From a phage: DNA of 64,000 nt. Shown here piece after piece: positions 30,678 through 42,218 of this stretch (within the stretch, counting starts at the first letter, position 1; each line of letters begins with the position of its first letter). The stretch is taken from sequence record PQ826431.1. One strand, 5' to 3'. The notes under the pieces are model-generated. The model was given only the letters and a program-made list of their open reading frames with translations. It did not search any database and was not told the DNA's origin. The translations under genes were made by a program, and so were the position numbers.

Positions 30678-33600
30678 ATGGCAACATTCCCAACATATCC
30701 AGCAACGTCTCTCGAACAGGGCGTAGACCTGGTTATTTTCTCATCTAACCAACTCCATGATGTTATTAATGGAAGTGCTACAGAGAGTATTGAAACAGAA
30801 TCAGGGTTGATACCAACCCTGAGAAAAGCCCTTGTTGACAACTTTTTCTTTAAAAGCCCATTGGATTGGGCGCAAGGCACAAACGAAACAGTTTTTAACC
30901 AACTTCGTTATTTCCAGAATGGAGTATTGAGCGGTTATTACTATGCCCCTAACGCTACATTGGTTAACCCAATCCCTATGCAAGGGACTCCAGTAGGAGA
31001 TAACAACTGGGTATTGTGGGGACTGAAGACAGAACAATTGGCAACAGAAGTCACCCCTTGGGTATATTCTGGTGCAACTGGTTATGAAACAGTAATTAGT
31101 CCTCCTTACATCTTTGATAGTGCTATTGTTACGATCAATGGTGTTATTCAGGTTCTGGGGGAAGCTTTCCGTATAGAAGATAGTAAGATCATCTTATCTG
31201 AACCTTTGGGACACGATCCTGCAACAGGACTGCCAAACAAACTTTTTGCTTATATTGGCAAAATCGTAGCTTCAGCAGATACAGATCCTAATCTAGAGAA
31301 CCGTCTTGTTAGTTTAGAAACAAAAACGGAAGAACTAACAGAAAGCATGGATAAAGTCCCTCTGCAAACTATTGCTCGTAAGTATGGTTTGTTAGATGAT
31401 GAGGTGGCTTACGCAACAGCAGGTCAATCGTTAACAGGGATTAAAGCTCTGTATGATCCGGTAGCGCAGTCTTCCTACACATTACCTCCTAACATTACAG
31501 GCACTTTAACATCCTTGTCTGTTTCTGGAGTAATGACTTATTCTGGAGGATCTGTAGACCTTTCTGCACTGGCTGTTGAGCGTGGACAGTTTGTTCATTT
31601 GCCTACAAGCTTTGGTAATAATGTAACTCTGACAGCTAAAAATCAGACGATTGGACGTGGCGCTGGTCGTTATCGTTGGGCTGGAAGTTTACCAAAAAGT
31701 ATTTTGGCTTCCGATACCTTGGAGACGAGCGGAGGATTAGGTCCAAATGCATGGGTTCTGACTAATACAGAAGGACTGTTAACCCCTCGTGGTGGAACAT
31801 ACAACGATTTATTCGATGTTGTCTACTTGTCCGAATTTGCTAACAATATAACTACCTATACCACACCAGAAGCAGCTTTCCAAGCGGCACTGTTAGCAGC
31901 AAAAGCTTCGAAAAGCAAGATTCTCGATGCTTACGGTTGCGATATGACTTTCACGACAAGCTCTTTTGATATTCAAGGTATCACTTTGCGTGGGGGTGTG
32001 TTCCGTGGTCAACGCGACTATCGTGTGCAAAATGCTACAGTAGAAGGCACAACTTTCCGTAACTCTCGTGTTATGTATTGGGGTGGTGCTGTGCGCATGT
32101 TTGATTGTTTGTGGGACGGTGCTCCTCGCGCAGGTCAAGTTGGTAGCTTGGTATTCCAAGGCAACCCAATATCAGGTACTTTTGAAATTGATAACTGTAC
32201 TTTTAAAAACGGGTTGTATGGCATCCTTCAACAAGGAACAGGGGAACCAGTAACACGTGGTGTCTTCCGTAACCTTACCTTCATGGACATGCAAGGTGAT
32301 GCAATAGAACTGAACGTCATCAATAAACATTATGACGATGGTTGTGTGATTGAGAATATTTACCTGTCTAATATCGATGGGACTAACGCTCCTATTCCTC
32401 TGTCCAACTGGGGTATCGGTATCGGTGTAGCTGGTAAAGGACCATATGGTTACGGAATCCCTGATGATCAATATTGCAAGAATATTACAATTCGTAACGT
32501 TTTTGCAAAACGTTGTCGTCAGATTGTCCACGTAGAAGTTGGTCGTAATATCTCTATCGAAAACATTCATGGCGATCCAGATCAGACTGTATCTGTTGGG
32601 ACAGGTTTGGCAACTGGCGCAGTTGTAATGTACGGAAGTAAAGATTTTACGATTGACGGTGTTTACGGAGAGCCTAAAACAGACGGTAGCACACTTGCAA
32701 GTAATATCCGTATGATTTATTTGGAGTGGGGAACTAACGCAGTTCTGGACGAAGAGGGTAATCCGGTAGTTCCGGCACAGGGTAGACCTTCAAACCCATG
32801 CTTTAACTATTCTGTTCGTAATATTCACACCAAAACTGGGCGTGTTTTTGCAGGAGTTTCCGCTGGGCCAGGTTATGAAAACAGAGTTAGCTTTGAAAAT
32901 ATTCGTTGCGCTGCATTGCAGTTGTTCGGTATAGCTTCTTGGCTTTCAATGTCTAACATCACCTGTAATATCTTCGATTGTGTTGGTCAACCTGAATCTG
33001 GTCCAGGGACATTTTATGATGGATTCTTCCGTAGAGAAAAATCTGTTCTTGAAATGGTTAACGTAAACTGTTACCCAGATGGCAAGACGATGGTTACTGG
33101 TCGTCCACAGTGGAGCCGTTGCCGTTACTCGGATATTCATCGTGTCAACTGTAATGTTGAAGCTAATATGTATACCAATATCGCAGGTGGTATTGGAGCT
33201 ATTGTAGGAACAACTGGCAAAGTTTATTACTTAGAGCCTAATCCTAGTCGAAACATTGATGGAATGCATTTCCCAACAGGGAAAGAGTTTGACAAAGGTG
33301 ATATGATAGTCAAGGCGGATAATACGTTCTTCCTTGTAACAACAAGTGGGGCATATATTCCAGATATCCCAGCTTTCGGTATTCGAGCTACACAGGCAGG
33401 AGATACCTTCCTGACACAGAACTTGACTCCTAACGGGACAGCAACAAATGCTTCTTGGTTGTATCATTACCCTCTGTCAGCAGGGACACGTATCCGTATT
33501 CCTGGTGCTGGCGTAGGTGGAGCAGATTTGGACACAGTTATTACTCGTGCACCTTATCAAGATAATGATACGTGGACTAACCCAGTTAAAATAGACATTG

Positions 33601-33731
33601 CAGATCCAATTGTAACGCCTACAAGTGCTGGAGTTAGAATTAAAACCATACCTAATGATTCCAGTAATGTTTCTGTAGGTAATACTGCGGTTATTCGCCC
33701 AACGCCAGTAGTAGATGTGCCAACAACCTAA
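30678..33731 (+). CDS. putative tailspike/depolymerase (parallel beta-helix)
   Basis: 1017 aa; repeated N-I-x-I/V rungs typical of right-handed beta-helix. Confidence 0.45.
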   Translation: MATFPTYPATSLEQGVDLVIFSSNQLHDVINGSATESIETESGLIPTLRKALVDNFFFKSPLDWAQGTNETVFNQLRYFQNGVLSGYYYAPNATLVNPIPMQGTPVGDNNWVLWGLKTEQLATEVTPWVYSGATGYETVISPPYIFDSAIVTINGVIQVLGEAFRIEDSKIILSEPLGHDPATGLPNKLFAYIGKIVASADTDPNLENRLVSLETKTEELTESMDKVPLQTIARKYGLLDDEVAYATAGQSLTGIKALYDPVAQSSYTLPPNITGTLTSLSVSGVMTYSGGSVDLSALAVERGQFVHLPTSFGNNVTLTAKNQTIGRGAGRYRWAGSLPKSILASDTLETSGGLGPNAWVLTNTEGLLTPRGGTYNDLFDVVYLSEFANNITTYTTPEAAFQAALLAAKASKSKILDAYGCDMTFTTSSFDIQGITLRGGVFRGQRDYRVQNATVEGTTFRNSRVMYWGGAVRMFDCLWDGAPRAGQVGSLVFQGNPISGTFEIDNCTFKNGLYGILQQGTGEPVTRGVFRNLTFMDMQGDAIELNVINKHYDDGCVIENIYLSNIDGTNAPIPLSNWGIGIGVAGKGPYGYGIPDDQYCKNITIRNVFAKRCRQIVHVEVGRNISIENIHGDPDQTVSVGTGLATGAVVMYGSKDFTIDGVYGEPKTDGSTLASNIRMIYLEWGTNAVLDEEGNPVVPAQGRPSNPCFNYSVRNIHTKTGRVFAGVSAGPGYENRVSFENIRCAALQLFGIASWLSMSNITCNIFDCVGQPESGPGTFYDGFFRREKSVLEMVNVNCYPDGKTMVTGRPQWSRCRYSDIHRVNCNVEANMYTNIAGGIGAIVGTTGKVYYLEPNPSRNIDGMHFPTGKEFDKGDMIVKADNTFFLVTTSGAYIPDIPAFGIRATQAGDTFLTQNLTPNGTATNASWLYHYPLSAGTRIRIPGAGVGGADLDTVITRAPYQDNDTWTNPVKIDIADPIVTPTSAGVRIKTIPNDSSNVSVGNTAVIRPTPVVDVPTT

Positions 33732-33792: not shown

Positions 33793-35817
33793 ATGAATTT
33801 AACAAGACCTAATAGTGCGATAGCCGATCTGGTAGAAGCTACTTATCGAAAACGTCGCAGCTTTGAGGCAGGTTTTACATTACGTAATTCCCGTGAAGTT
33901 TTGCTGTTAGCAGCAGAAGGGAATTATTACCAATGGAAAGGAACTTTTCCTAAAGTAGTTCCAGCAAACTCTACACCAGCCACCACAGGTGGTATTTCTT
34001 CCCTTGCATGGCAAAGTGTTGGGACCGCTGATGATATAGCAATTATCAATGCCAAGTTTACGGCAATGCAGCAACAGATTGATGATCTGTCGGAAACAAT
34101 ACCTGAAGCTGGTAAATCGGCTTATCAGATCGCACTTGATAATGGTTTTGTTGGAACAGAAGCACAATGGCTTGCTTCTTTGAAAGGGGATACTGGTGCT
34201 CAACTTAATATTAAAGGATCATTAGCAAGCACTAGTGAACTACCATCCACAGGTAACGTTGCAGGGGATGGTTATATCGTAGGTGATGTAATCTACGCTT
34301 GGGATGGTTCTGTTTGGAAACTTATTTCTTCTCTTGGGCCAGAAGGTAAATCAGCTTACGAGGTATGGTTGGCAGATGGTAATACAGGATCTGTTTATGA
34401 TTTTCTTACCTCTATAAAAGGTGATAAAGGCGATGTTGGTCCTACAGGGCCACAGGGAGCACCTGGTGTTAACGCCAACGGTTTTGATTATCGTGGGGAT
34501 TTGCCTTCTACAAGTAACTTACCACAACCAAACTCTGAAAACGTAAGTCAAGCTTATTCTATCAATGGTAATCTTTATGTCTCTAATGGGACAGCTTGGG
34601 TCAACATGGGTAATATTGTTGGTCCTCAAGGTCCACAAGGTGAGGCAGGTAAAGACGGTCTTGATGGAACAGATGGAGATGAAGGGAAATCTGCATATCA
34701 AAGTTGGCTGGATGCTGGTAATGAAGGGACAGAAGTAGATTTTATTGCCTCACTTAAAGGTCCAAAAGGAGACAAGGGTGATCAAGGAGAGCGAGGTCCA
34801 CAAGGTGAACTAGGTCCACAAGGACCAGTGGGTGCAACAGGATCAGGCTTAGAGATTATCGGGGTTCTGAACAGTGAAGCTGAACTTCCTCCTACTGGAG
34901 AAGTAGGTGATGCATATAAAATTAATAATGATTTGTATGTTTGGATTCAAGATGCTACGGAATGGATGAATGTTGGCAGTCTTGGAGGAACATCAATTAC
35001 AGCTAAAGGTCATGTTCCGAACAGTGAAGCTCTCCCTGTTTATAATAACTATGGTGATGCCTACTTAACTGAAGACACTAGTAATCTTTACATCTATACC
35101 TACGATCAAGACACCAATTCCGCATCTTTTGTTGACATGGGAAGTATTAAAGGCGACAAAGGTGAAAAAGGGGATAAAGGAGATAAGGGTGATCCTGGAA
35201 CAAACGGAACCAACGGTACTAATGGGACCAACGGTAAAGACGGCGCACAGTGGTTTGTAGCAACAACTAATCCAGTCGCAGGTGATGGTGTTATCAATGA
35301 TTACGCTTTCAACACTACCACTGGAGCAGTGTTTAAGAAAACAGATTCTTCTACGTGGACACTTATAGGAACTCTTCCTAGTATACCAGAAGCACCTCAA
35401 GACGGCTTGACGTATGGTCGTTCTGATGGGAACTGGATCGAAATATCAGGATCAGATCCTACAGAAGCTATAACACCAACTAAAGTTACAGCAGGTTTCA
35501 TGGAACTTGAAACAACTACTGCCAACTCTGGAGCATCTTGGACTCCTTCTGGAACTTCCAATATGTATGTTGTTACAGTAACTGACGCTCTGACAGTTGG
35601 AGCATGGCCTGGTGTCACTGGCTCTACAAAGCCTAAAGCGTTTTCAGCAATGATTTATTTGATTCAAGATACAACGGGACACACGGTTACACTAGATGCG
35701 TCTTATGGAGCACTGAATGATACAGAAATAGCAACTACTGCTAACGCAGTAACAATTTTGCAATTAACGTATCCTGGTGTGGGTAATGTCGTGGACATGG
35801 TTGTTGTAACACGATAA
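33793..35817 (+). CDS. collagen-like tail fibre protein
   Basis: Several Gly-X-Y triplet runs (GDKGDVGPTGPQGAPG; GPQGPQGEAGKDG; GPKGDKGDQGERGPQGELGPQGPVG; GDKGEKGDKGDKGDPGTNGTNGTNGTNGKDG) alternating with a repeated GKSAYxxWLxxGN module. Confidence 0.6.
   Translation: MNLTRPNSAIADLVEATYRKRRSFEAGFTLRNSREVLLLAAEGNYYQWKGTFPKVVPANSTPATTGGISSLAWQSVGTADDIAIINAKFTAMQQQIDDLSETIPEAGKSAYQIALDNGFVGTEAQWLASLKGDTGAQLNIKGSLASTSELPSTGNVAGDGYIVGDVIYAWDGSVWKLISSLGPEGKSAYEVWLADGNTGSVYDFLTSIKGDKGDVGPTGPQGAPGVNANGFDYRGDLPSTSNLPQPNSENVSQAYSINGNLYVSNGTAWVNMGNIVGPQGPQGEAGKDGLDGTDGDEGKSAYQSWLDAGNEGTEVDFIASLKGPKGDKGDQGERGPQGELGPQGPVGATGSGLEIIGVLNSEAELPPTGEVGDAYKINNDLYVWIQDATEWMNVGSLGGTSITAKGHVPNSEALPVYNNYGDAYLTEDTSNLYIYTYDQDTNSASFVDMGSIKGDKGEKGDKGDKGDPGTNGTNGTNGTNGKDGAQWFVATTNPVAGDGVINDYAFNTTTGAVFKKTDSSTWTLIGTLPSIPEAPQDGLTYGRSDGNWIEISGSDPTEAITPTKVTAGFMELETTTANSGASWTPSGTSNMYVVTVTDALTVGAWPGVTGSTKPKAFSAMIYLIQDTTGHTVTLDASYGALNDTEIATTANAVTILQLTYPGVGNVVDMVVVTR
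34420..35240 (+). repeat. collagen-like Gly-X-Y triplet repeat blocks and three-fold internal module repeat
   Basis: Seen directly in translation and DNA (ggt-nnn-nnn periodicity). Confidence 0.6.
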
Positions 35818-35821
35818 CAGA

Positions 35822-35845
35822 AGCCCCGAAAGGGGCTTTCTTTTT
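35822..35845 (+). terminator. rho-independent terminator
   Basis: AGCCCC-GAAA-GGGGCT hairpin then TTTCTTTTTAT. Confidence 0.6.
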
Positions 35846-35858
35846 ATGGAGGGTTTAA

Positions 35859-38531
35859 ATGTTTCCAATTCCAATATTTACTATTATGACCAGCACTGGT
35901 GTCGTTCCTCTGCCAGCGGGTATTGTTAAAAAAGTAATCACTTTAGATTACCCATATAATGCTGGTAATTCTAACAGCAGTTTAGCAATTTTGCTTAATG
36001 ATGGTAGATTGTTTACTCAAGGCGCAAACCTTTTTGGTGAGATTGCAGATGGAACTCGTAGTGCACGATTCAATAATTTCCACTTAGCTTCTACTGTAGT
36101 AGCGGATGTGTTTACCGCAGATCGTTGTTTTGTTATTAAAACTAACAGTGGGGGATGGCAATATTCAGGATTGACAGCAGGGTTGGTAGGATCTATAGCA
36201 GCAGGTGGTACGGATGCATGTGTAACTACTTGGACCAGCTTTCCATCTGTAATAACAGGGACTATCTCTTTAGCCAATCTTAAAGAGGTTAAGGGAGGAT
36301 ATAACAACACTCTCTGGTTAATGAATAGTGGTGTTCTTTATGGATCAGGTCAAAACACAGTAGGTAGTTTAGGTGCAAGTACTACTAACGAAGTTTCTAC
36401 TCCTCGTCAGATAACAAGTGCAGCAGTTGCTTTTGATGCAGGTTACAACCAATGCTCTTATGTCAACAATGTGGGAACCTTGCGTGTTTGTGGAGCTAGT
36501 AAAGGTTTAGCAGGTAATAATAACACAACAACAGCTTTTGTCAATGCCAAGATATCCGCTACTGAAACAGTGTATGTCAAAGATTACATCAATACAGTTT
36601 CCCAGACAATAGTTGTAGGAGATACCTCCGGTGGCACGGGTGCAGTAAACTACTTATATGTTAGATCTAATACAGAAACAACCTACACTAAACTGGATAC
36701 CTTTGCAGCAGGTTTCTCAACATGGAAATTTCCACCAAGCCGCCACTCTTTTTTCGTTGGGATCAATAATTCCTTGTGGGCTATTGGTAAGAACTACACT
36801 GCAAACTTAGGTTTGGGGTATGATTCTGCGAGCGGAGATCCACTTCAAGTGGGAAAACCAGTTAAACCTGAAGGAGTGGGTTCCTGGGATATAAACAAGC
36901 TCACAAGCGTTCATACGCTGAATATGGATGTTACTAACCAATTAGGTTATCAAGGAACCTTTTTCGTTTATAATGGAGATATGTATTATTCCGGTATTTG
37001 GAAAGATGGGAAAGCCTCGTATCTGTTCAATAGTGGTCTAAACTATAATAAATTCACACCAATAGCAAGCTCTGTGATTACAGGGGATGTGCTGGCAACT
37101 AGCTTAACTACAGATTCTTTAGGAGTTTGTATTGTAGGTGGAACTAAACAGTTGACACATTCTGTTAGCCCAGAAGGAGGTAAACTTTTCAATATTAAAT
37201 ACACTTCTTCTGCCCCTGCAAACATGACAATATCATCTACTGGTTTAATGACTTTCCATGCAGAAGGTGGTTTTGATGCAGGTATGACAGCCTTAAACGC
37301 TGAAGGAACAACTTTATCAGATACCTCTGGAGGATATGCTTCAACATTGAGTGTTTACACCCCTAGCTTATCTGCGATGGATGTAGGAACAACACAAACA
37401 ATGGTAGCAGAAATAACGCCAACAGGGGCAGCAAGCTTACCTGGCATGGTTGTTGAATATACAACTACAGATCCTAGTGTTGCTACAGTAGATCCTACAA
37501 CTGGTGTAATAACTGGTGTTGGTGATGGTGGTTGTAGGATTGGTTGCACAGCTACGTATCAAGGTGTTGTTACCGCTTCCGATAGTTCTTATTTAACGGT
37601 GAATGCTGTTGCGGGAAAGGAGTTAGCTCCATCTCCGAGTAGTAGTTTAACGGTTCTAAACGGATATTTCAACCACTCGGCAGATGGGGCAATTACGTTC
37701 CCAATTTTATCGGGTACTGTCACACCAGCTAACTTTGTAGTTAAGGTGGATGACGTTGTAATACCTTCAAATAAAGTAATATTTAGAAATAAAGCTTTCT
37801 CTACAGTGGATAGTTATCCAGCAGGAGAATATAGACTGGCTATTGAATTTGCAAGTGCTTCAGTAGTGAATAGTGTTGATGTGTCTATGGAAGCAAATCC
37901 AGATCTTTTAGAATTATGGGGCGGCAACAGAATTGGTTATTCTACAAGCCCAGCCTCACAATTCTTAAAAGGTTGTGCTAACTTAAGACGAATAACTTCT
38001 GATTGTTTTAGTAACACATCTTACACCGGAACATCTATAAGTGGTATCTTCTCTGGCTGCACAAGTTTGACAGCTATCCCTGAAGGATTATTCAGTGATG
38101 CTTTATTTCCTTCAATGACAACAATGTCAAGCACGTTTGAAGGTTGTACATCTTTAACATCTATTCCTTCAGATTTATTTAAGAATCTATCAAAAGTTAC
38201 AAGATATTCTTACACTTTTAAAGATTGCACCTCTCTTGCAGAAGTTCCAGCAGGAATGTTTGATAATATTCCAACGAAAGTGACCTCTTTAACAGCTACA
38301 TTCCAAGGTTGTTTAGCACTTACAGATTTTAATAAAATCTTTAATGACAACCCAGGGTTAACTGTTTGTGGTAAACGTGGAGCATTATCTTCTTTCTTTA
38401 GTGGATGCACAAATCTTACAGGAACAGGAACAACATTAACAAATACATTAGGTGGAGTAGCTAATAGTTACCTATTCAGGTATTGCACAAAACTTTCTGA
38501 TTATAACAATATTCCTTCGGGTTATAAATAA
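35859..38531 (+). CDS. virion-associated protein with Big_2-like Ig domain and BspA-type leucine-rich repeats
   Basis: Big_2-like segment about 37360-37600 (TPTGAASLPGMVVEYTTTDPSVATVDPTTGVITGVGDGG); C-terminal repeats about 37960-38500 (FSGCTSLTAIPEGLF / FEGCTSLTSIPSDLF / FKDCTSLAEVPAGMF / FQGCLALTDF / FSGCTNLTG). Confidence 0.5.
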   Translation: MFPIPIFTIMTSTGVVPLPAGIVKKVITLDYPYNAGNSNSSLAILLNDGRLFTQGANLFGEIADGTRSARFNNFHLASTVVADVFTADRCFVIKTNSGGWQYSGLTAGLVGSIAAGGTDACVTTWTSFPSVITGTISLANLKEVKGGYNNTLWLMNSGVLYGSGQNTVGSLGASTTNEVSTPRQITSAAVAFDAGYNQCSYVNNVGTLRVCGASKGLAGNNNTTTAFVNAKISATETVYVKDYINTVSQTIVVGDTSGGTGAVNYLYVRSNTETTYTKLDTFAAGFSTWKFPPSRHSFFVGINNSLWAIGKNYTANLGLGYDSASGDPLQVGKPVKPEGVGSWDINKLTSVHTLNMDVTNQLGYQGTFFVYNGDMYYSGIWKDGKASYLFNSGLNYNKFTPIASSVITGDVLATSLTTDSLGVCIVGGTKQLTHSVSPEGGKLFNIKYTSSAPANMTISSTGLMTFHAEGGFDAGMTALNAEGTTLSDTSGGYASTLSVYTPSLSAMDVGTTQTMVAEITPTGAASLPGMVVEYTTTDPSVATVDPTTGVITGVGDGGCRIGCTATYQGVVTASDSSYLTVNAVAGKELAPSPSSSLTVLNGYFNHSADGAITFPILSGTVTPANFVVKVDDVVIPSNKVIFRNKAFSTVDSYPAGEYRLAIEFASASVVNSVDVSMEANPDLLELWGGNRIGYSTSPASQFLKGCANLRRITSDCFSNTSYTGTSISGIFSGCTSLTAIPEGLFSDALFPSMTTMSSTFEGCTSLTSIPSDLFKNLSKVTRYSYTFKDCTSLAEVPAGMFDNIPTKVTSLTATFQGCLALTDFNKIFNDNPGLTVCGKRGALSSFFSGCTNLTGTGTTLTNTLGGVANSYLFRYCTKLSDYNNIPSGYK

Positions 38532-38536
38532 GAAAA

Positions 38537-38560
38537 GGAGCCATTTGGCTCCTTTTCTTT
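38537..38560. terminator. bidirectional rho-independent terminator between convergent arms
   Basis: AAAA-GGAGCC-ATTT-GGCTCC-TTTTCTTTT; perfect hairpin flanked by A-tract and T-tract. Confidence 0.65.
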
Positions 38561-39087
38561 TATTCAGCGTTCAACCCTTCCCCATGTTCTTGATGCCAAG
38601 CTTCATGGTGCAGAGGACACAGCCATAGAACATCTAACGGTTTATCATAATCACAATGATGAGCATGAACATCAACAGACCCACACACTTGGCAAGGCTG
38701 TTTTACTAACTTTCCATCTCGGAGTGCGTTACCTACAGCTATATGAGCAGAACGTTTTTTCGGATTCTTTTCGATGTAACGTTTCTTAGCTTCATTAGCC
38801 TTATCTTTACCTTTCCCTTTTGCGTAAGCCTCTTTCAAAGCTTTGCGCTCTGGGGTCTGATCTCTGCTTTTATCATACTCTTTGTAATATTCAGATTTAT
38901 CTTTACGATTCTGTTTAACATCTTTCTTATTACATTCCTTGCATTTATTGACGTGACCGTCAGCCATAGCTTTATGTTTGTAAAATTCAGTGAGGGGCTT
39001 TAACACCCCACACTTGAAACAAACCTTAGAAGCAATGCAGGAAGTTTCGACCATATTGCAGTCCAATAGGGGCAAATGGAATATCAT
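38560..39087 (-). CDS. HNH endonuclease
   Basis: N-terminal Cys4 ribbon (CFKCG...CKEC), C-terminal HNH-type motif VHAHHCDY...LWLCPLHHEAWH; ORF track extends to 39252 but real start is probably an internal Met (39087 or 39054). Confidence 0.6.
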   Translation of the reverse strand: MIFHLPLLDCNMVETSCIASKVCFKCGVLKPLTEFYKHKAMADGHVNKCKECNKKDVKQNRKDKSEYYKEYDKSRDQTPERKALKEAYAKGKGKDKANEAKKRYIEKNPKKRSAHIAVGNALRDGKLVKQPCQVCGSVDVHAHHCDYDKPLDVLWLCPLHHEAWHQEHGEGLNAE

Positions 39088-39958
39088 CGTCGAAGTCCAT
39101 TGGAGGTTCTTCTTGATTACTTGGAGTTGGTTCTGGTTGTGGTTCAGGTTTCTTAACTTCTTTCTTCTCTTCTTTCTTAGGCTGTTCTGCGGAACCACGA
39201 ATGGCAGCAGCAACTTTATCAGACAGAGCCAGAACTTTACGAGCAGAATCAATCAGATCTTCTACAGAGACAGTCTTAATGGTATGGTCTTTACAAGCAT
39301 TGAGAATAGCGTGACCAACAGATGCCCCAAGATCATAATCATTAATATCAACGCCACGAGATTCAGCAATTTCAGATTTCAGCGTGACAGTTGCAGATTG
39401 AACAACCCCAGCGATATCGAAAGCATCGCCTTTAACACCATTACGAATCAGTTCCAGTGCACCATTTACTGCGTGACCAGTTTCCAGACCTACAGTATCA
39501 CGTTTTTTATAGGATTGCTTAGGAGCAGCATCGTTGGAACCTTTATTGCCAGAAGATTTGTTAGACTTCTGAACACCATCGGTAGACAATACTGTAATAC
39601 GAGATTTTTTAGTATTGTAGTAAGTTTTACCGCCTTTATTATCAACGCGATCAATATCAATACTTACTTCTACACCTTTTTCAATAGTGATCCAATTATC
39701 ACCTTCTTTGACTTGCAGGTTTTCATAACCTTCTTTCAGTTCAATGTCACCAAGAGAAATCCAAACACCTTTCTCATCTGGTTTAGCACCTTTCTCTTTC
39801 AGAACAAGAGAGGCTCGGTGAGTTGAAACAATCGTTTTTCCTTCCCAATGAAAAGTTTTAGGTTCAGCGAATTTATCCAGTTTAACGTAGTCTACGATAC
39901 CAGTTGCATAAGTTACGGTTTTGCCTTTACGATCAGTTTCAGTATTAATTACGGACAT
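39026..39958 (-). CDS. ssb: single-stranded DNA-binding protein
   Basis: Pro/Glu-rich linker followed by PPMDFDDDIPF (E. coli SSB acidic tip), then a 15 aa extension. Confidence 0.55.
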   Translation of the reverse strand: MSVINTETDRKGKTVTYATGIVDYVKLDKFAEPKTFHWEGKTIVSTHRASLVLKEKGAKPDEKGVWISLGDIELKEGYENLQVKEGDNWITIEKGVEVSIDIDRVDNKGGKTYYNTKKSRITVLSTDGVQKSNKSSGNKGSNDAAPKQSYKKRDTVGLETGHAVNGALELIRNGVKGDAFDIAGVVQSATVTLKSEIAESRGVDINDYDLGASVGHAILNACKDHTIKTVSVEDLIDSARKVLALSDKVAAAIRGSAEQPKKEEKKEVKKPEPQPEPTPSNQEEPPMDFDDDIPFAPIGLQYGRNFLHCF

Positions 39959-41395: not shown

Positions 41396-41607
41396 TAATC
41401 TTCCTCCAGATCAATTTCATTATAACAATGTATGCAGAAACCATCATTGTGCATATGTTGTTCATAAGACATATCTTTACCACAAGACCAACAACGGATA
41501 TCCCCATCGTCCCATTCACGTTCTTCTTCACCTTCAAATTCATCTGGTAGATAAGGCATACCAAAATAATCTAAATCGTAACTCATATCTTCTCCTATCG
41601 AGTCCAC
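41395..41607 (-). CDS. small acidic zinc-ribbon protein
   Basis: CWSCG ... CIHC pairs of cysteines. Confidence 0.35.
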   Translation of the reverse strand: MDSIGEDMSYDLDYFGMPYLPDEFEGEEEREWDDGDIRCWSCGKDMSYEQHMHNDGFCIHCYNEIDLEED

Positions 41608-42191
41608 TCCTTACGTTGTTCAATATGTTCAAGCATATCATTATACAATGTTTTAAGATGTGGAACAACTCTTTGATCTTCTGTTTCAAAAAACTTTGTA
41701 AGCTGCTCTGCTTTAGCTTTTAGCCAACAAAGATGTGCCTCAAGTTCAGTATCAAAACGTCCGAGCGTTATAATACGACCATCTACTTTTATATGGGCTT
41801 TATATTTCTTACGATCTTTTTCGTAATGGAAGCCTACCATAGTGCCATGAGATCTTTTACTTACCCTGTAAGCTAAAAACTTGTTAAGATCCCCTGTTAC
41901 TAAAAGGCAGGTGGCGGGAGAGTAAACTCTCCCTCCTATAATATCTTTATCGAGTTCTAAGTTTTCCCAGTTGTCCCAAGTTTGCAACCAAGCGTAGAAG
42001 TTGGAAAACAGTTTCCATTCTTCACAGACCGTCACTCCGTGATAACAAGGATCACGTTCTTGTTGGCAAGGGGAGTAACACCTCCCCAACATAGCCATCC
42101 ACTTCATATAATGAGGAGTTAATTTCTTACTGCCAGGCAGTGTACTTTCACCCTCCAAATCATTAATACCTTCACCATACACAGTAAGCAT
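41595..42191 (-). CDS. AP2-domain DNA-binding protein, possible homing endonuclease
   Basis: C-terminal GFHYEKDRKKYKAHIKVDGRIITLGRFDTELEAHLCWLKA resembles AP2 fold; adjacent to intein-containing polymerase. Confidence 0.35.
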   Translation of the reverse strand: MLTVYGEGINDLEGESTLPGSKKLTPHYMKWMAMLGRCYSPCQQERDPCYHGVTVCEEWKLFSNFYAWLQTWDNWENLELDKDIIGGRVYSPATCLLVTGDLNKFLAYRVSKRSHGTMVGFHYEKDRKKYKAHIKVDGRIITLGRFDTELEAHLCWLKAKAEQLTKFFETEDQRVVPHLKTLYNDMLEHIEQRKEWTR

Positions 42192-42218
42192 AAAAACTCC
42201 TTTAAAGTCAAATAGATG

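Follow-up and report, generated by a model that had tools for sequence, protein, structure and literature searches.

A modular Phapecoctavirus structural-arm protein with an RCC1-like propeller, Ig-like domains, and an exchangeable leucine-rich repeat tip is a candidate low-copy accessory adhesin

The window analyzed here is a stretch of 64,000 nucleotides from the phage record PQ826431.1, which comes from a phAPEC8-like coliphage of the genus Phapecoctavirus whose genome shares 98-99% identity with many coliphages already sequenced. Its plus-strand, ATG-initiated open reading frame of 890 codons (Table 1) encodes a protein that matches the PHROG 11922 profile over its full length (1343.7 bits, E 0; residues 1-890 aligned to positions 1-867 of the 870-position profile) and that was named TfpM1, for "major tail fiber protein 1", in PMC12695924. 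The coding sequence shares 98-99% of its nucleotides with 34 Phapecoctavirus records. The gene is encoded within the tail-fiber gene cluster, a placement in keeping with a tail fiber or receptor-binding protein, and has baseplate, short-fiber, chaperone, colanidase-tailspike, and 674-aa fiber genes on its 5' side. As the initial annotation had stated, the structural (virion) arm ends with this gene: no further plus-strand gene follows it, the GC skew changes sign at ~38 kb, and the genes beyond lie on the minus strand and are of replication type according to the annotation of the twin phage EF1-1. The structural and replication arms converge at a hairpin (z -6.7) whose fold energies, one per strand, are -20.6 and -21.1 kcal/mol, and the annotations of rV5 and PVP-SE1 include equivalent bidirectional terminators. 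The position at the end of the structural arm is constant in phAPEC8-, phi92-, rV5-, and PVP-SE1-like phages.

Table 1. Features of the 890-aa gene and its flanks in PQ826431.1 (window coordinates)
Feature	Position	Strand	Details and evidence
Intrinsic-terminator-like hairpin (GAAGCCCC-GAAA-GGGGCTTT) and T-run	35820..35847	+	Terminator scan; RNA fold
Ribosome-binding site GGAGGG	35848..35853	+	5 nt before ATG; direct reading of the sequence
CDS, 890 aa	35859..38531	+	ORF call; PHROG 11922 "tail protein"; TfpM1 in PMC12695924
N-terminal peptide MFPIPIFTIMTSTGVV, M-x-P-I-P motif	35859..35906	+	Conservation across four genera; putative docking element
RCC1-like seven-bladed beta-propeller (predicted)	35916..37073	+	About aa 20-405; Pfam, PDB sequence, Foldseek
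Two tandem Big_2 Ig-like domains	37086..37613	+	About aa 410-495 and 496-585; Pfam, AF2
Exchangeable C-terminal cassette	37610..38550	+	Codon 584 to stop codon, into terminator; blastn, per-domain identities
PKD-like or Ig-like beta-sandwich	37626..37943	+	About aa 590-695, first half of cassette; AF2 strands, homologs
LRR solenoid (predicted), about seven turns	37944..38528	+	Repeat F-x-G-C-T-x-L-T-x-I-P-x-x-L-F
Bidirectional terminator hairpin	38530..38559	.	Convergence of structural and replication arms; fold energies

Between the 674-aa tail-fiber gene and the 890-aa gene lies a stem-loop (35820-35839) followed by CTTTTTAT. The initial annotation had called this element a strong terminator; the hairpin and its T-run are indeed present, but the stem-loop is moderate rather than outstandingly strong, since its RNA fold energy is -15.8 kcal/mol with a z of -2.7. 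A hairpin with a T-run also occupies the equivalent spot in rV5, where it corresponds to terminator t028 (Table S4, PMC3606486), and in PVP-SE1, so that the arrangement of hairpin and ribosome-binding site is kept in three genera; the rV5 and PVP-SE1 stem sequences are unrelated to the one found here. The gene does keep a ribosome-binding site of its own, as initially described. Matches to the rV5 late-promoter core TGGTAAAATA were no commoner than chance, with none near the gene, and a sigma-70-like scan for a separate promoter revealed no enrichment. The presence of its own ribosome-binding site together with the lack of a detectable promoter suggests that the gene is co-transcribed with the fiber genes, and the upstream hairpin would act as a transcriptional attenuator, although its moderate stability counts against this part of our interpretation. 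The earlier proposal of lower or separately regulated expression fits, by analogy, the low abundance of the positional counterpart gp27 of rV5 in virion MudPIT analysis, where 3 peptides and 9 spectra (3.1% coverage) were recorded, whereas the major capsid protein gave 2030 spectra.

From its N- to its C-terminus, the protein comprises a conserved peptide, an RCC1-like propeller, two Big_2 domains, a PKD-like sandwich, and a cysteine-containing leucine-rich repeat (LRR) solenoid of ~7 turns. Within the N-terminal peptide, M1, P3, and P5 are invariant in 37 homologs, and the M-x-P-I-P motif is common to rV5 ORF27, PVP-SE1 gene 40, and the phi92-like Eryne protein, in which the propeller is missing. 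In the AF2 model, aa 1-6 have a pLDDT <50. Secretion of the protein was considered and rejected, as signal-peptide features are absent from the N-terminus, where M-x-P-I-P is conserved instead.

The propeller, which does not figure in the initial annotation, is the largest domain and accounts for ~400 aa, or 45% of the protein. The Pfam RCC1 model (PF00415) scored 23.9 bits against a cutoff of 21.7, and the whole-domain RCC1-like model PF25390 reached 42.6 bits (E 6.5e-11), far under its cutoff of 150. The region matched RPGR, UVR8, and HERC2 among PDB sequences, and Foldseek comparison with the PDB retrieved UVR8, HERC2, RPGR, and RCC1 (E 2e-13 to 1e-9, target-normalized TM 0.6-0.72, ~410 columns); the predicted model of aa 20-405 is consistent with a seven-bladed propeller fold. 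There is no reason to expect a guanine-nucleotide-exchange or chromatin function, and the label "regulator of chromosome condensation" given by PHROG reflects no more than the transfer of a name. A protein that works outside the virion, either in an intracellular RCC1-like role or as a late soluble product that is freed at lysis and binds the host surface or debris as a decoy or biofilm factor, appears very unlikely to us: the PHROG placement of RCC1-like phage proteins in nucleotide metabolism goes by name only, and the terminator that separates the gene from the structural operon is set against its apparent co-transcription with the fiber genes. Moreover, rV5 gp27 peptides were recovered from purified virions, RCC1-annotated proteins were detected in W70 virions, the sequence shows no evident signal peptide, and the shuffling of the C-terminal cassette described below is typical of surface-exposed adhesins.

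The Ig-like segment recognized initially was recovered as two stretches by Pfam Big_2 (PF02368, 39.2 bits, cutoff 22.8) and as two beta-sandwiches at ~aa 410-585 in the AF2 model. With the beginning of the protein encoded by the final structural gene of phi92-like phages it shares 62-64% identity, and it also matches PHROG 215, "structural protein with Ig domain", of the head and packaging category. Big_2 on a structural-module protein is likewise seen in Ig-domain decoration and accessory proteins (T4 Hoc type; Big_2 tail-tube proteins), and by this analogy the role of the 890-aa protein may be accessory and dispensable in the laboratory; the comparison with Hoc and lambda gpV rests on established knowledge. 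A Hoc-type decoration of the head or neck, with Ig-like domains projecting from the capsid and adhering weakly to surfaces such as mucus and not to a bacterial receptor, would agree with the PHROG 215 match, the tandem Ig-like domains in a monomer-type architecture, and the homology of one alternative cassette to a gene transfer agent (GTA) head-spike fiber domain. [quoted passage not shown] Besides gene position and low abundance, the additional propeller and LRR distinguish the protein from the T4 Hoc type, and no homology to Hoc was detected.

In the C-terminal region, where at least five repeats of the F-x-G-C-T-S-L-T-x-I-P form had been reported, we counted seven F-x-G-C-x-x-L repeats followed by the cap C-T-K-L-S-D-Y-N-N-I-P-S-G-Y-K, and the modeled repeats are in line with a short-parallel-strand LRR solenoid. 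The described combination of Big_2 Ig-like domains with cysteine-containing LRRs in one protein stands. The designation of the repeats as BspA-type holds only in part. When the domain searches proposed as a check were run, Big_2 passed, but LRR_5 (PF13306) gave no match at E<=1 for the full 890-aa protein, and the 305-aa C-terminus matched zero families at E<=1e-3. DUF285 (PF03382; E 0.068, 13.4 bits, cutoff 25) and PARCEL (TIGR02167; E 0.0027, 17.4-18.4 bits, cutoff 30) both fell below threshold. On the other hand, LRR_5 was matched by 19 of the 49 aligned cassette homologs (best E 2.5e-13), one homolog carries the NCBI name "BspA family leucine-rich repeat surface protein", and the sister alleles P0021 and P0022 pass the DUF285/PARCEL cutoff with 145 and 126 bits. 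Direct assignment to LRR_5, DUF285, or PARCEL was therefore rejected, the support being transitive only. In comparison with BspA/TpLRR (LRR_5) and DUF285/PARCEL proteins, the repeat here measures 26-32 aa with an I-P-x-x-L-F extension and ends in the characteristic cap L-S-x-Y-x-x-I-P-x-x-[WY]-K; it also belongs to a phage structural protein, whereas the BspA types are bacterial surface proteins. The distant LRR homologs P0063 and P0094 lie in phage-like genomic contexts, which are uninformative on tail location. For the sandwich that precedes the solenoid, Pfam PKD was matched by two homologs in alignment A2, homologs carry a DWGDGS motif ahead of their LRRs, and a BFVD match bears a PKD-domain protein name.

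The PKD-like sandwich and the LRR solenoid together make up the last 305 aa, and this segment is replaced among phages whose proteins are 97-99% identical over the remainder. Comparison by blastn with phage nieznany revealed 95.4% identity up to 37609, no match from 37610 to 38550, and 99.3% identity from 38551, placing sharp DNA breakpoints at 37609/37610 and 38550/38551. Per-domain identities among the homologs follow a mosaic pattern: in P0008-10, aa 1-495 are 97-100% identical and the sequence beyond aa 585 is unrelated, and in P0004-7 the propeller is only 75% identical and the cassette 90-92%. Two alternative cassettes were found, one matching GTA_spike_fiber (NCBIfam, E 2.6e-20 to 8e-24) and the other a DUF285/PARCEL LRR (DUF285 E 1e-42), and in a third state the cassette is missing, the PVP-SE1-type proteins ending after the Ig domains. 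In a putative natural fusion, the cassette is joined to the Tail_spike_N anchor of the upstream fiber gene. The domain of the RcGTA head-spike fiber (NCBIfam NF048003) is thus carried by an alternative allele at the exact position where the PQ826431.1 allele has its LRR, which suggests that glycan- or surface-binding tips occupy this position; the two cassettes are without homology. At the sequence level, the protein appears to combine a conserved anchor with a variable distal part, as receptor-binding proteins do, and cassette-like replacement would fit the role in adhesion or host range that had been proposed. Since the tip is exchanged as a cassette among related phages, the likeliest reading is that the protein is an accessory adhesin of the virion with a low copy number.

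The conserved N-terminal body, the horizontally exchanged distal module, and the sharp boundaries between them recall the modularity of tail fibers and tailspikes; in contrast to these, the conserved part here consists of propeller and Ig domains, the tip is an LRR, and neither a trimeric fiber nor a beta-helix architecture emerged. A canonical trimeric lateral tail fiber acting as the main receptor-binding protein is in our view unlikely, even though the gene lies within the tail-fiber cluster, its C-terminus varies between alleles, PHROG 11922 is labeled "tail protein", and similarity-based annotation has given the names TfpM1 and, in BASEL, "lateral tail fiber protein with intimin domain". 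The RCC1 propeller, Big_2, PKD-like, and LRR modules are all typically monomeric; coiled coil, beta-helix, collar, Tail_spike_N, and a chaperone-dependent tip were not detected in Pfam, PHROG, and fold searches; and the upstream hairpin and very low rV5 gp27 spectral counts speak against a major component. Furthermore, the counterpart was not among the phi92 candidate fibers picked by fiber-like topology. A trimerization element and an enzymatic domain were likewise not found, which, together with the lack of Tail_spike_N, makes the protein unlike characterized receptor-binding proteins; Tail_spike_N is present in the two upstream genes. A depolymerase role was rejected, no search having returned a catalytic domain.

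Counterparts in related phages share the position and the N-terminus rather than the tip. Those of rV5, PVP-SE1, and Eryne are each the last structural-arm gene before the bidirectional terminator and carry M-x-P-I-P and Big_2, like the 890-aa gene, but the LRR cassette is in none of them. With 1878 aa, rV5 gp27 (ORF 27) is twice as long and has a different body; it shares Big_2 and, at 38% identity, the first ~195 residues, which cover no more than the start of the propeller. The PVP-SE1 gene 40 product (604 aa) is 38% identical over 585 aa and retains the propeller, while the phi92-like Eryne CDS0033 (628 aa) has no propeller and an unrelated 440-aa C-terminus. Because PVP-SE1-like phages lack the cassette, the tip cannot be the sole function of the protein. 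We found no Phapecoctavirus virion proteome in the literature; the counterpart is not placed in the cryo-EM structures of phi92 and of rV5-like BASEL phages, and the BASEL, receptor-prediction, phi92 cryo-EM, and RBPseg literature holds nothing specific on the 890-aa protein.

On balance, we favor the view that the gene product is an accessory adhesin of modular build, made in small quantities and belonging to the adsorption apparatus of the phage. The kind of protein is already known; its build is unusual. In such an adhesin, the M-x-P-I-P-x-F N-terminal peptide would dock it to the virion, with the periphery of the baseplate or fibers as the likeliest site, the propeller and Ig domains would serve as a stalk or second binding platform, and the LRR tip would bind a cell-surface ligand, so that its exchange would alter what the phage sticks to. 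Transcription would reach the gene solely by read-through of the hairpin, which would keep the copy number low. Against this view or its placement, the three peptides of rV5 gp27 could be carry-over, and the homology of one alternative cassette to a head-spike fiber makes a head or neck location possible. A bolder proposal, which we regard as rather doubtful, is that rV5, PVP-SE1, phi92, and phAPEC8 myoviruses share a hitherto undescribed class of accessory adhesin that is low-copy, non-fibrous, probably monomeric, and of plug-in build. The conserved N-terminal peptide would clip such an adhesin to the virion, the scaffold would consist of an optional RCC1 propeller, two Ig domains, and an optional tip, and the pool of tips would include BspA-like LRRs, PARCEL LRRs, and GTA head-spike lectin domains; the LRR tip might recognize a protein, or a surface that is not bacterial (gut mucus, for example), in place of the classical glycan receptors.

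Phapecoctaviruses and their rV5- and phi92-like relatives have a broad host range and many fibers, and they are common in therapy cocktails. If the accessory-adhesin interpretation is true, the clean recombination boundaries of a cassette-bearing LRR adhesin would make it a natural handle for engineering host range, and LRR solenoids would be added to the few receptor-binding folds that have been studied in coliphages; were the proposed undescribed class real, broad-host-range phages would possess a separate layer of environmental targeting. Should the protein prove dispensable and bind nothing relevant, it would be merely another Ig-domain accessory protein. The conserved hairpin, ribosome-binding site, and N-terminal peptide provide three testable hypotheses, on attenuation, low copy number, and docking. 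LRR modules also occur in phage tail or structural proteins elsewhere, namely in the "tail protein I" of Klebsiella Reipivirus and in one metagenomic phage structural module, and BFVD contains LRR proteins from uncultured phages.

The open reading frame at 35859..38531 (+) starts with ATG and encodes 890 aa. This 2,673-bp region has 34 full-length matches at 98-99% identity in sequenced genomes of Phapecoctavirus (phAPEC8-like myoviruses of ~150 kb, Stephanstirmvirinae), including AV125, Mt1B1_P17, EF1-1, tuntematon and ESCO5, where the product is labelled "hypothetical protein" or "tail protein". Many GenBank records already include the gene, as does PHROG 11922, and it is uncharacterised. 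In EF1-1, it is preceded by genes for a baseplate wedge, a baseplate protein, a short tail fibre, a fibre assembly protein, a lipoprotein, a 1017-aa colanic-acid-degrading tailspike and a 674-aa tail fibre, in that order, while the genes 3' of it lie on the opposite strand and have replication functions. Together with a sign change in GC skew at ~38 kb of the window, this arrangement makes the gene the last of the structural arm, in agreement with the initial annotation. The window contains the branched multi-fibre "Swiss army knife" locus of phi92-like phages.

Features of the 890-aa protein gene, its surroundings and its homologues (window positions unless stated otherwise)
Feature	Position	Remark
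Colanic-acid-degrading tailspike	30678-33731	PHROG 6117; identical product in Logan contig SRR10359460_34 (L002) matches Pfam WcaM and Tail_spike_N
674-aa fibre	33793-35817	Tail_spike_N
Hairpin, then CTTTTTAT	35820-35839	begins 3 nt past upstream gene's stop codon
GGAGGG RBS	35848-35853	5 nt before ATG
N-terminal peptide	aa 1-16	
RCC1-like propeller	aa ~20-405	
Big_2 domain 1	aa ~410-495	
Big_2 domain 2	aa ~496-585	
PKD-like beta-sandwich	aa ~590-695	
LRR solenoid	aa ~696-890	
M-x-P-I-P-(x)-[LF] sites	35859-35906; L008 6956-7003; L006 6001-6040; L007 6001-6030	L006-L008, comparison phage DNA
Fusion microhomology	34012-34036 vs 37560-37584	25 nt, imperfect
Fusion ORF	L002 6001-7191	396 aa, in frame
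Endonuclease gene	38563-39252 (-)	PHROG 2340, E 5.5e-48; endonuclease VII / HNH-like
First segment missing from SRR10359460 contig	38564-39074	~510 bp, within endonuclease gene
Second segment missing from SRR10359460 contig	41599-42218	~620 bp; ORF 41595..42191 (-)
Alternative cassette: NCBIfam "GTA_spike_fiber / phage head spike fiber" domain		E 2.6e-20 to 8e-24
Alternative cassette: PKD-like domain + bona fide DUF285/PARCEL LRR		E 1e-42
Alternative cassette: unknown modules		homologue P0020; Eryne
No cassette at all		homologues P0027-37; PVP-SE1 gene 40 (604 aa)

Domain searches bore out the Ig-like segment claimed earlier, with Pfam Big_2 above threshold (39.2 bits vs 22.8) in two stretches, and revealed an overlooked seven-bladed RCC1-like beta-propeller that takes up residues 1-405, or 45% of the protein. 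The propeller passes the cutoff of the Pfam RCC1 repeat model, reaches E 6.5e-11 with the whole-domain model PF25390, yet far under that model's own cutoff, and matches the PDB sequences of RPGR, UVR8 and HERC2 by phmmer. An AlphaFold2 model built from 37 homologues (mean pLDDT 86.5) retrieved the UVR8, HERC2 and RCC1 propellers by Foldseek (E 2e-13; TM ~0.7 normalised to target, ~410 columns). The architecture is a variation on modular phage receptor-binding or accessory proteins. A further domain-level indel is seen in homologue P0011 (573 aa, 60-kb Logan contig), in which both Big_2 domains are precisely absent between LATSLT and VNAVAG (~window 37100-37600) and the called protein begins at M155 of the propeller.

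At least five C-terminal repeats had been claimed; we found seven F-x-G-C-x-x-L units within the last 190 aa (starting at aa 702, 731, 760, 787, 815, 846 and ~872, 26-32 aa apart), three of them with the exact C-T-S-L-T/A. The proposed "BspA-type" label holds only transitively, through homologous sequences: the protein itself has no LRR_5 match at E<=1 and falls below cutoff for DUF285 (E 0.068) and PARCEL TIGR02167 (E 0.0027), while the 49 aligned cassette homologues include 19 with LRR_5 (best 2.5e-13), 10 with DUF285, seven with LRR_8, and one named "BspA family leucine-rich repeat surface protein" by NCBI. The family's repeat consensus is F-x-x-F-x-G-C-T-x-L-T-S-I-P-E-G-L-F-x-N-N-x-N-V-T, closed by a C-terminal cap, C-T-x-x-S-N-Y-x-x-I-P-x-x-x-K (mostly ...W-K in single homologues). 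Exhaustive phmmer with a 195-aa LRR query matched 18,753 cluster representatives when the threshold was E<=1e-3 and 976 when it was E<=1e-30; giant multi-repeat proteins are numerous among them. The LRR by itself is therefore commonplace, and the unusual part is its location within a coliphage structural protein. Pfam matches to PF23011 (PHD zinc finger of NSD) in 17 of the 49 homologues (e.g. P0044, P0047, P0051), and to a zinc-ribbon model in three, are almost certainly spurious, arising from the repeat's periodic cysteines, a pitfall for automatic annotation.

In three other groups, a relative occupies the last structural gene slot, before a bidirectional terminator. PVP-SE1 gene 40 shares 38% identity over 585 aa with the window protein, and rV5 ORF 27 (1878 aa) shares 38% in the first 195 aa and also has Big_2. 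Eryne CDS0033 (phi92-like, 628 aa) has a Big_2 tandem 62% identical to ours; it starts with MYPIPLFMSTTSASVV, immediately followed by the Ig tandem, so that the N-terminal peptide is kept and the propeller absent. Since Eryne is a Justusliebigvirus, the statement that this protein ("TfpM1") is absent from that genus (PMC12695924) is only partly right. M-x-P-I-P is invariant in four of four genera (Phapecoctavirus, Justusliebigvirus, Vequintavirus [rV5] and Seunavirus [PVP-SE1]), and M1, P3 and P5 in 37 homologues. We infer that this peptide (pLDDT <50 in the monomer model), and not the propeller, is the shared functional element, most simply a candidate docking peptide.

The C-terminus is a cassette open to exchange, as per-domain identities sort the homologues into mosaic classes. 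Up to aa 495, P0008-10 match the window protein at 97-100% identity; this drops to 87% in the second Big_2, and beyond aa 585 the sequences are unrelated. P0004-7 share only 75% in the propeller but 90-92% over sandwich plus LRR. Aligned as DNA, phage nieznany is 95.4% identical up to 37609, does not align over 37610-38550 and is 99.3% identical from 38551. In the phage database, the LRR cassette occurs in 36 records and the N-terminal 585 aa in 95 (>=80% coverage). The endonuclease gene that directly follows cassette and terminator is also found in nieznany, and no endonuclease is listed there in the EF1-1 annotation; this gene is probably a homing-type mobile element beside a recombination hot spot. 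The EF1-1 gene matching ORF 41595..42191 is annotated as an HNH endonuclease; a Pfam search of that ORF gave no match.

The SRR10359460 contig also carries a natural fusion, in which the 74 N-terminal residues (Tail_spike_N) of the 674-aa fibre are joined to the 322 C-terminal residues of the 890-aa protein. The junction lies at a microhomology, which speaks for a genuine deletion of ~3.5 kb and against an assembly error. Provided that this phage is viable, the LRR cassette can be displayed from another anchor.

Of the strong terminator and separate RBS proposed upstream, both elements are present, although the hairpin, while real, is only moderate (-15.8 kcal/mol, z -2.7); the bidirectional terminator 3' of the gene is stronger (-20.6 and -21.1 kcal/mol, z -6.7). 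The equivalent sites of rV5 and PVP-SE1 also combine a hairpin, T-run and RBS with unrelated stem sequences, the rV5 hairpin being rho-independent terminator t028 (-12.4 kcal/mol) according to its authors. From the hairpin to the ATG and nearby, no promoter-like element stands out, and transcription therefore probably arrives by read-through. Read-through would be consistent with low dosage, as would the sparse MudPIT spectra of rV5 virions, the sole virion evidence and from a partial homologue: locus 27 (1878 aa, 208 kDa) was covered to 3.1% by 3 peptides with 9 spectra, compared with 2030 spectra of the major capsid protein. That the protein lies outside the virion altogether seems very unlikely. 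In another of the Vequintavirinae, phage W70, three RCC1-annotated proteins were found in virions.

Gene position suggests a location at the baseplate or fibre periphery. A canonical trimeric fibre is improbable, as the protein has no recognisable trimerisation element and lacks the Tail_spike_N of both upstream neighbours. A head or neck location instead, as a Hoc-like decoration, would suit the GTA head-spike type of one alternative cassette, and we consider such a decoration unlikely. We lean, at somewhat better than even confidence, towards an accessory adhesin with few copies in the adsorption apparatus, in which the N-terminal peptide would dock the protein and the exchangeable LRR tip would form its far end. 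The earlier observation is confirmed and extended, and its interpretation supported in part. In the phi92 structure (2026), the fibres were not at near-atomic resolution and the counterpart was left unconsidered, and in rV5-like phages the RBPseg study found density for just three of the nine fibres that are annotated. Other phages lend an LRR tip on the particle some supporting context: LRR-bearing fibre proteins were proposed to act in host recognition in the Goslar structure paper. A 41%-identical LRR protein is encoded between terminase and a PhageMin_Tail protein in a metagenomic 56-kb phage, and several uncultured-phage LRR or "BspA family" proteins in BFVD share the sandwich-plus-LRR fold. 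The temperate, P2-like Klebsiella phage ST16-OXA48phi5.4 (Reipivirus) has a 1008-aa "tail protein I", gp35 (L005 2547-5573), with a related C-terminal LRR (32% identity); this LRR gives 7-8 repeat matches per record, and the gene lies directly before the tail collar fibre gene.
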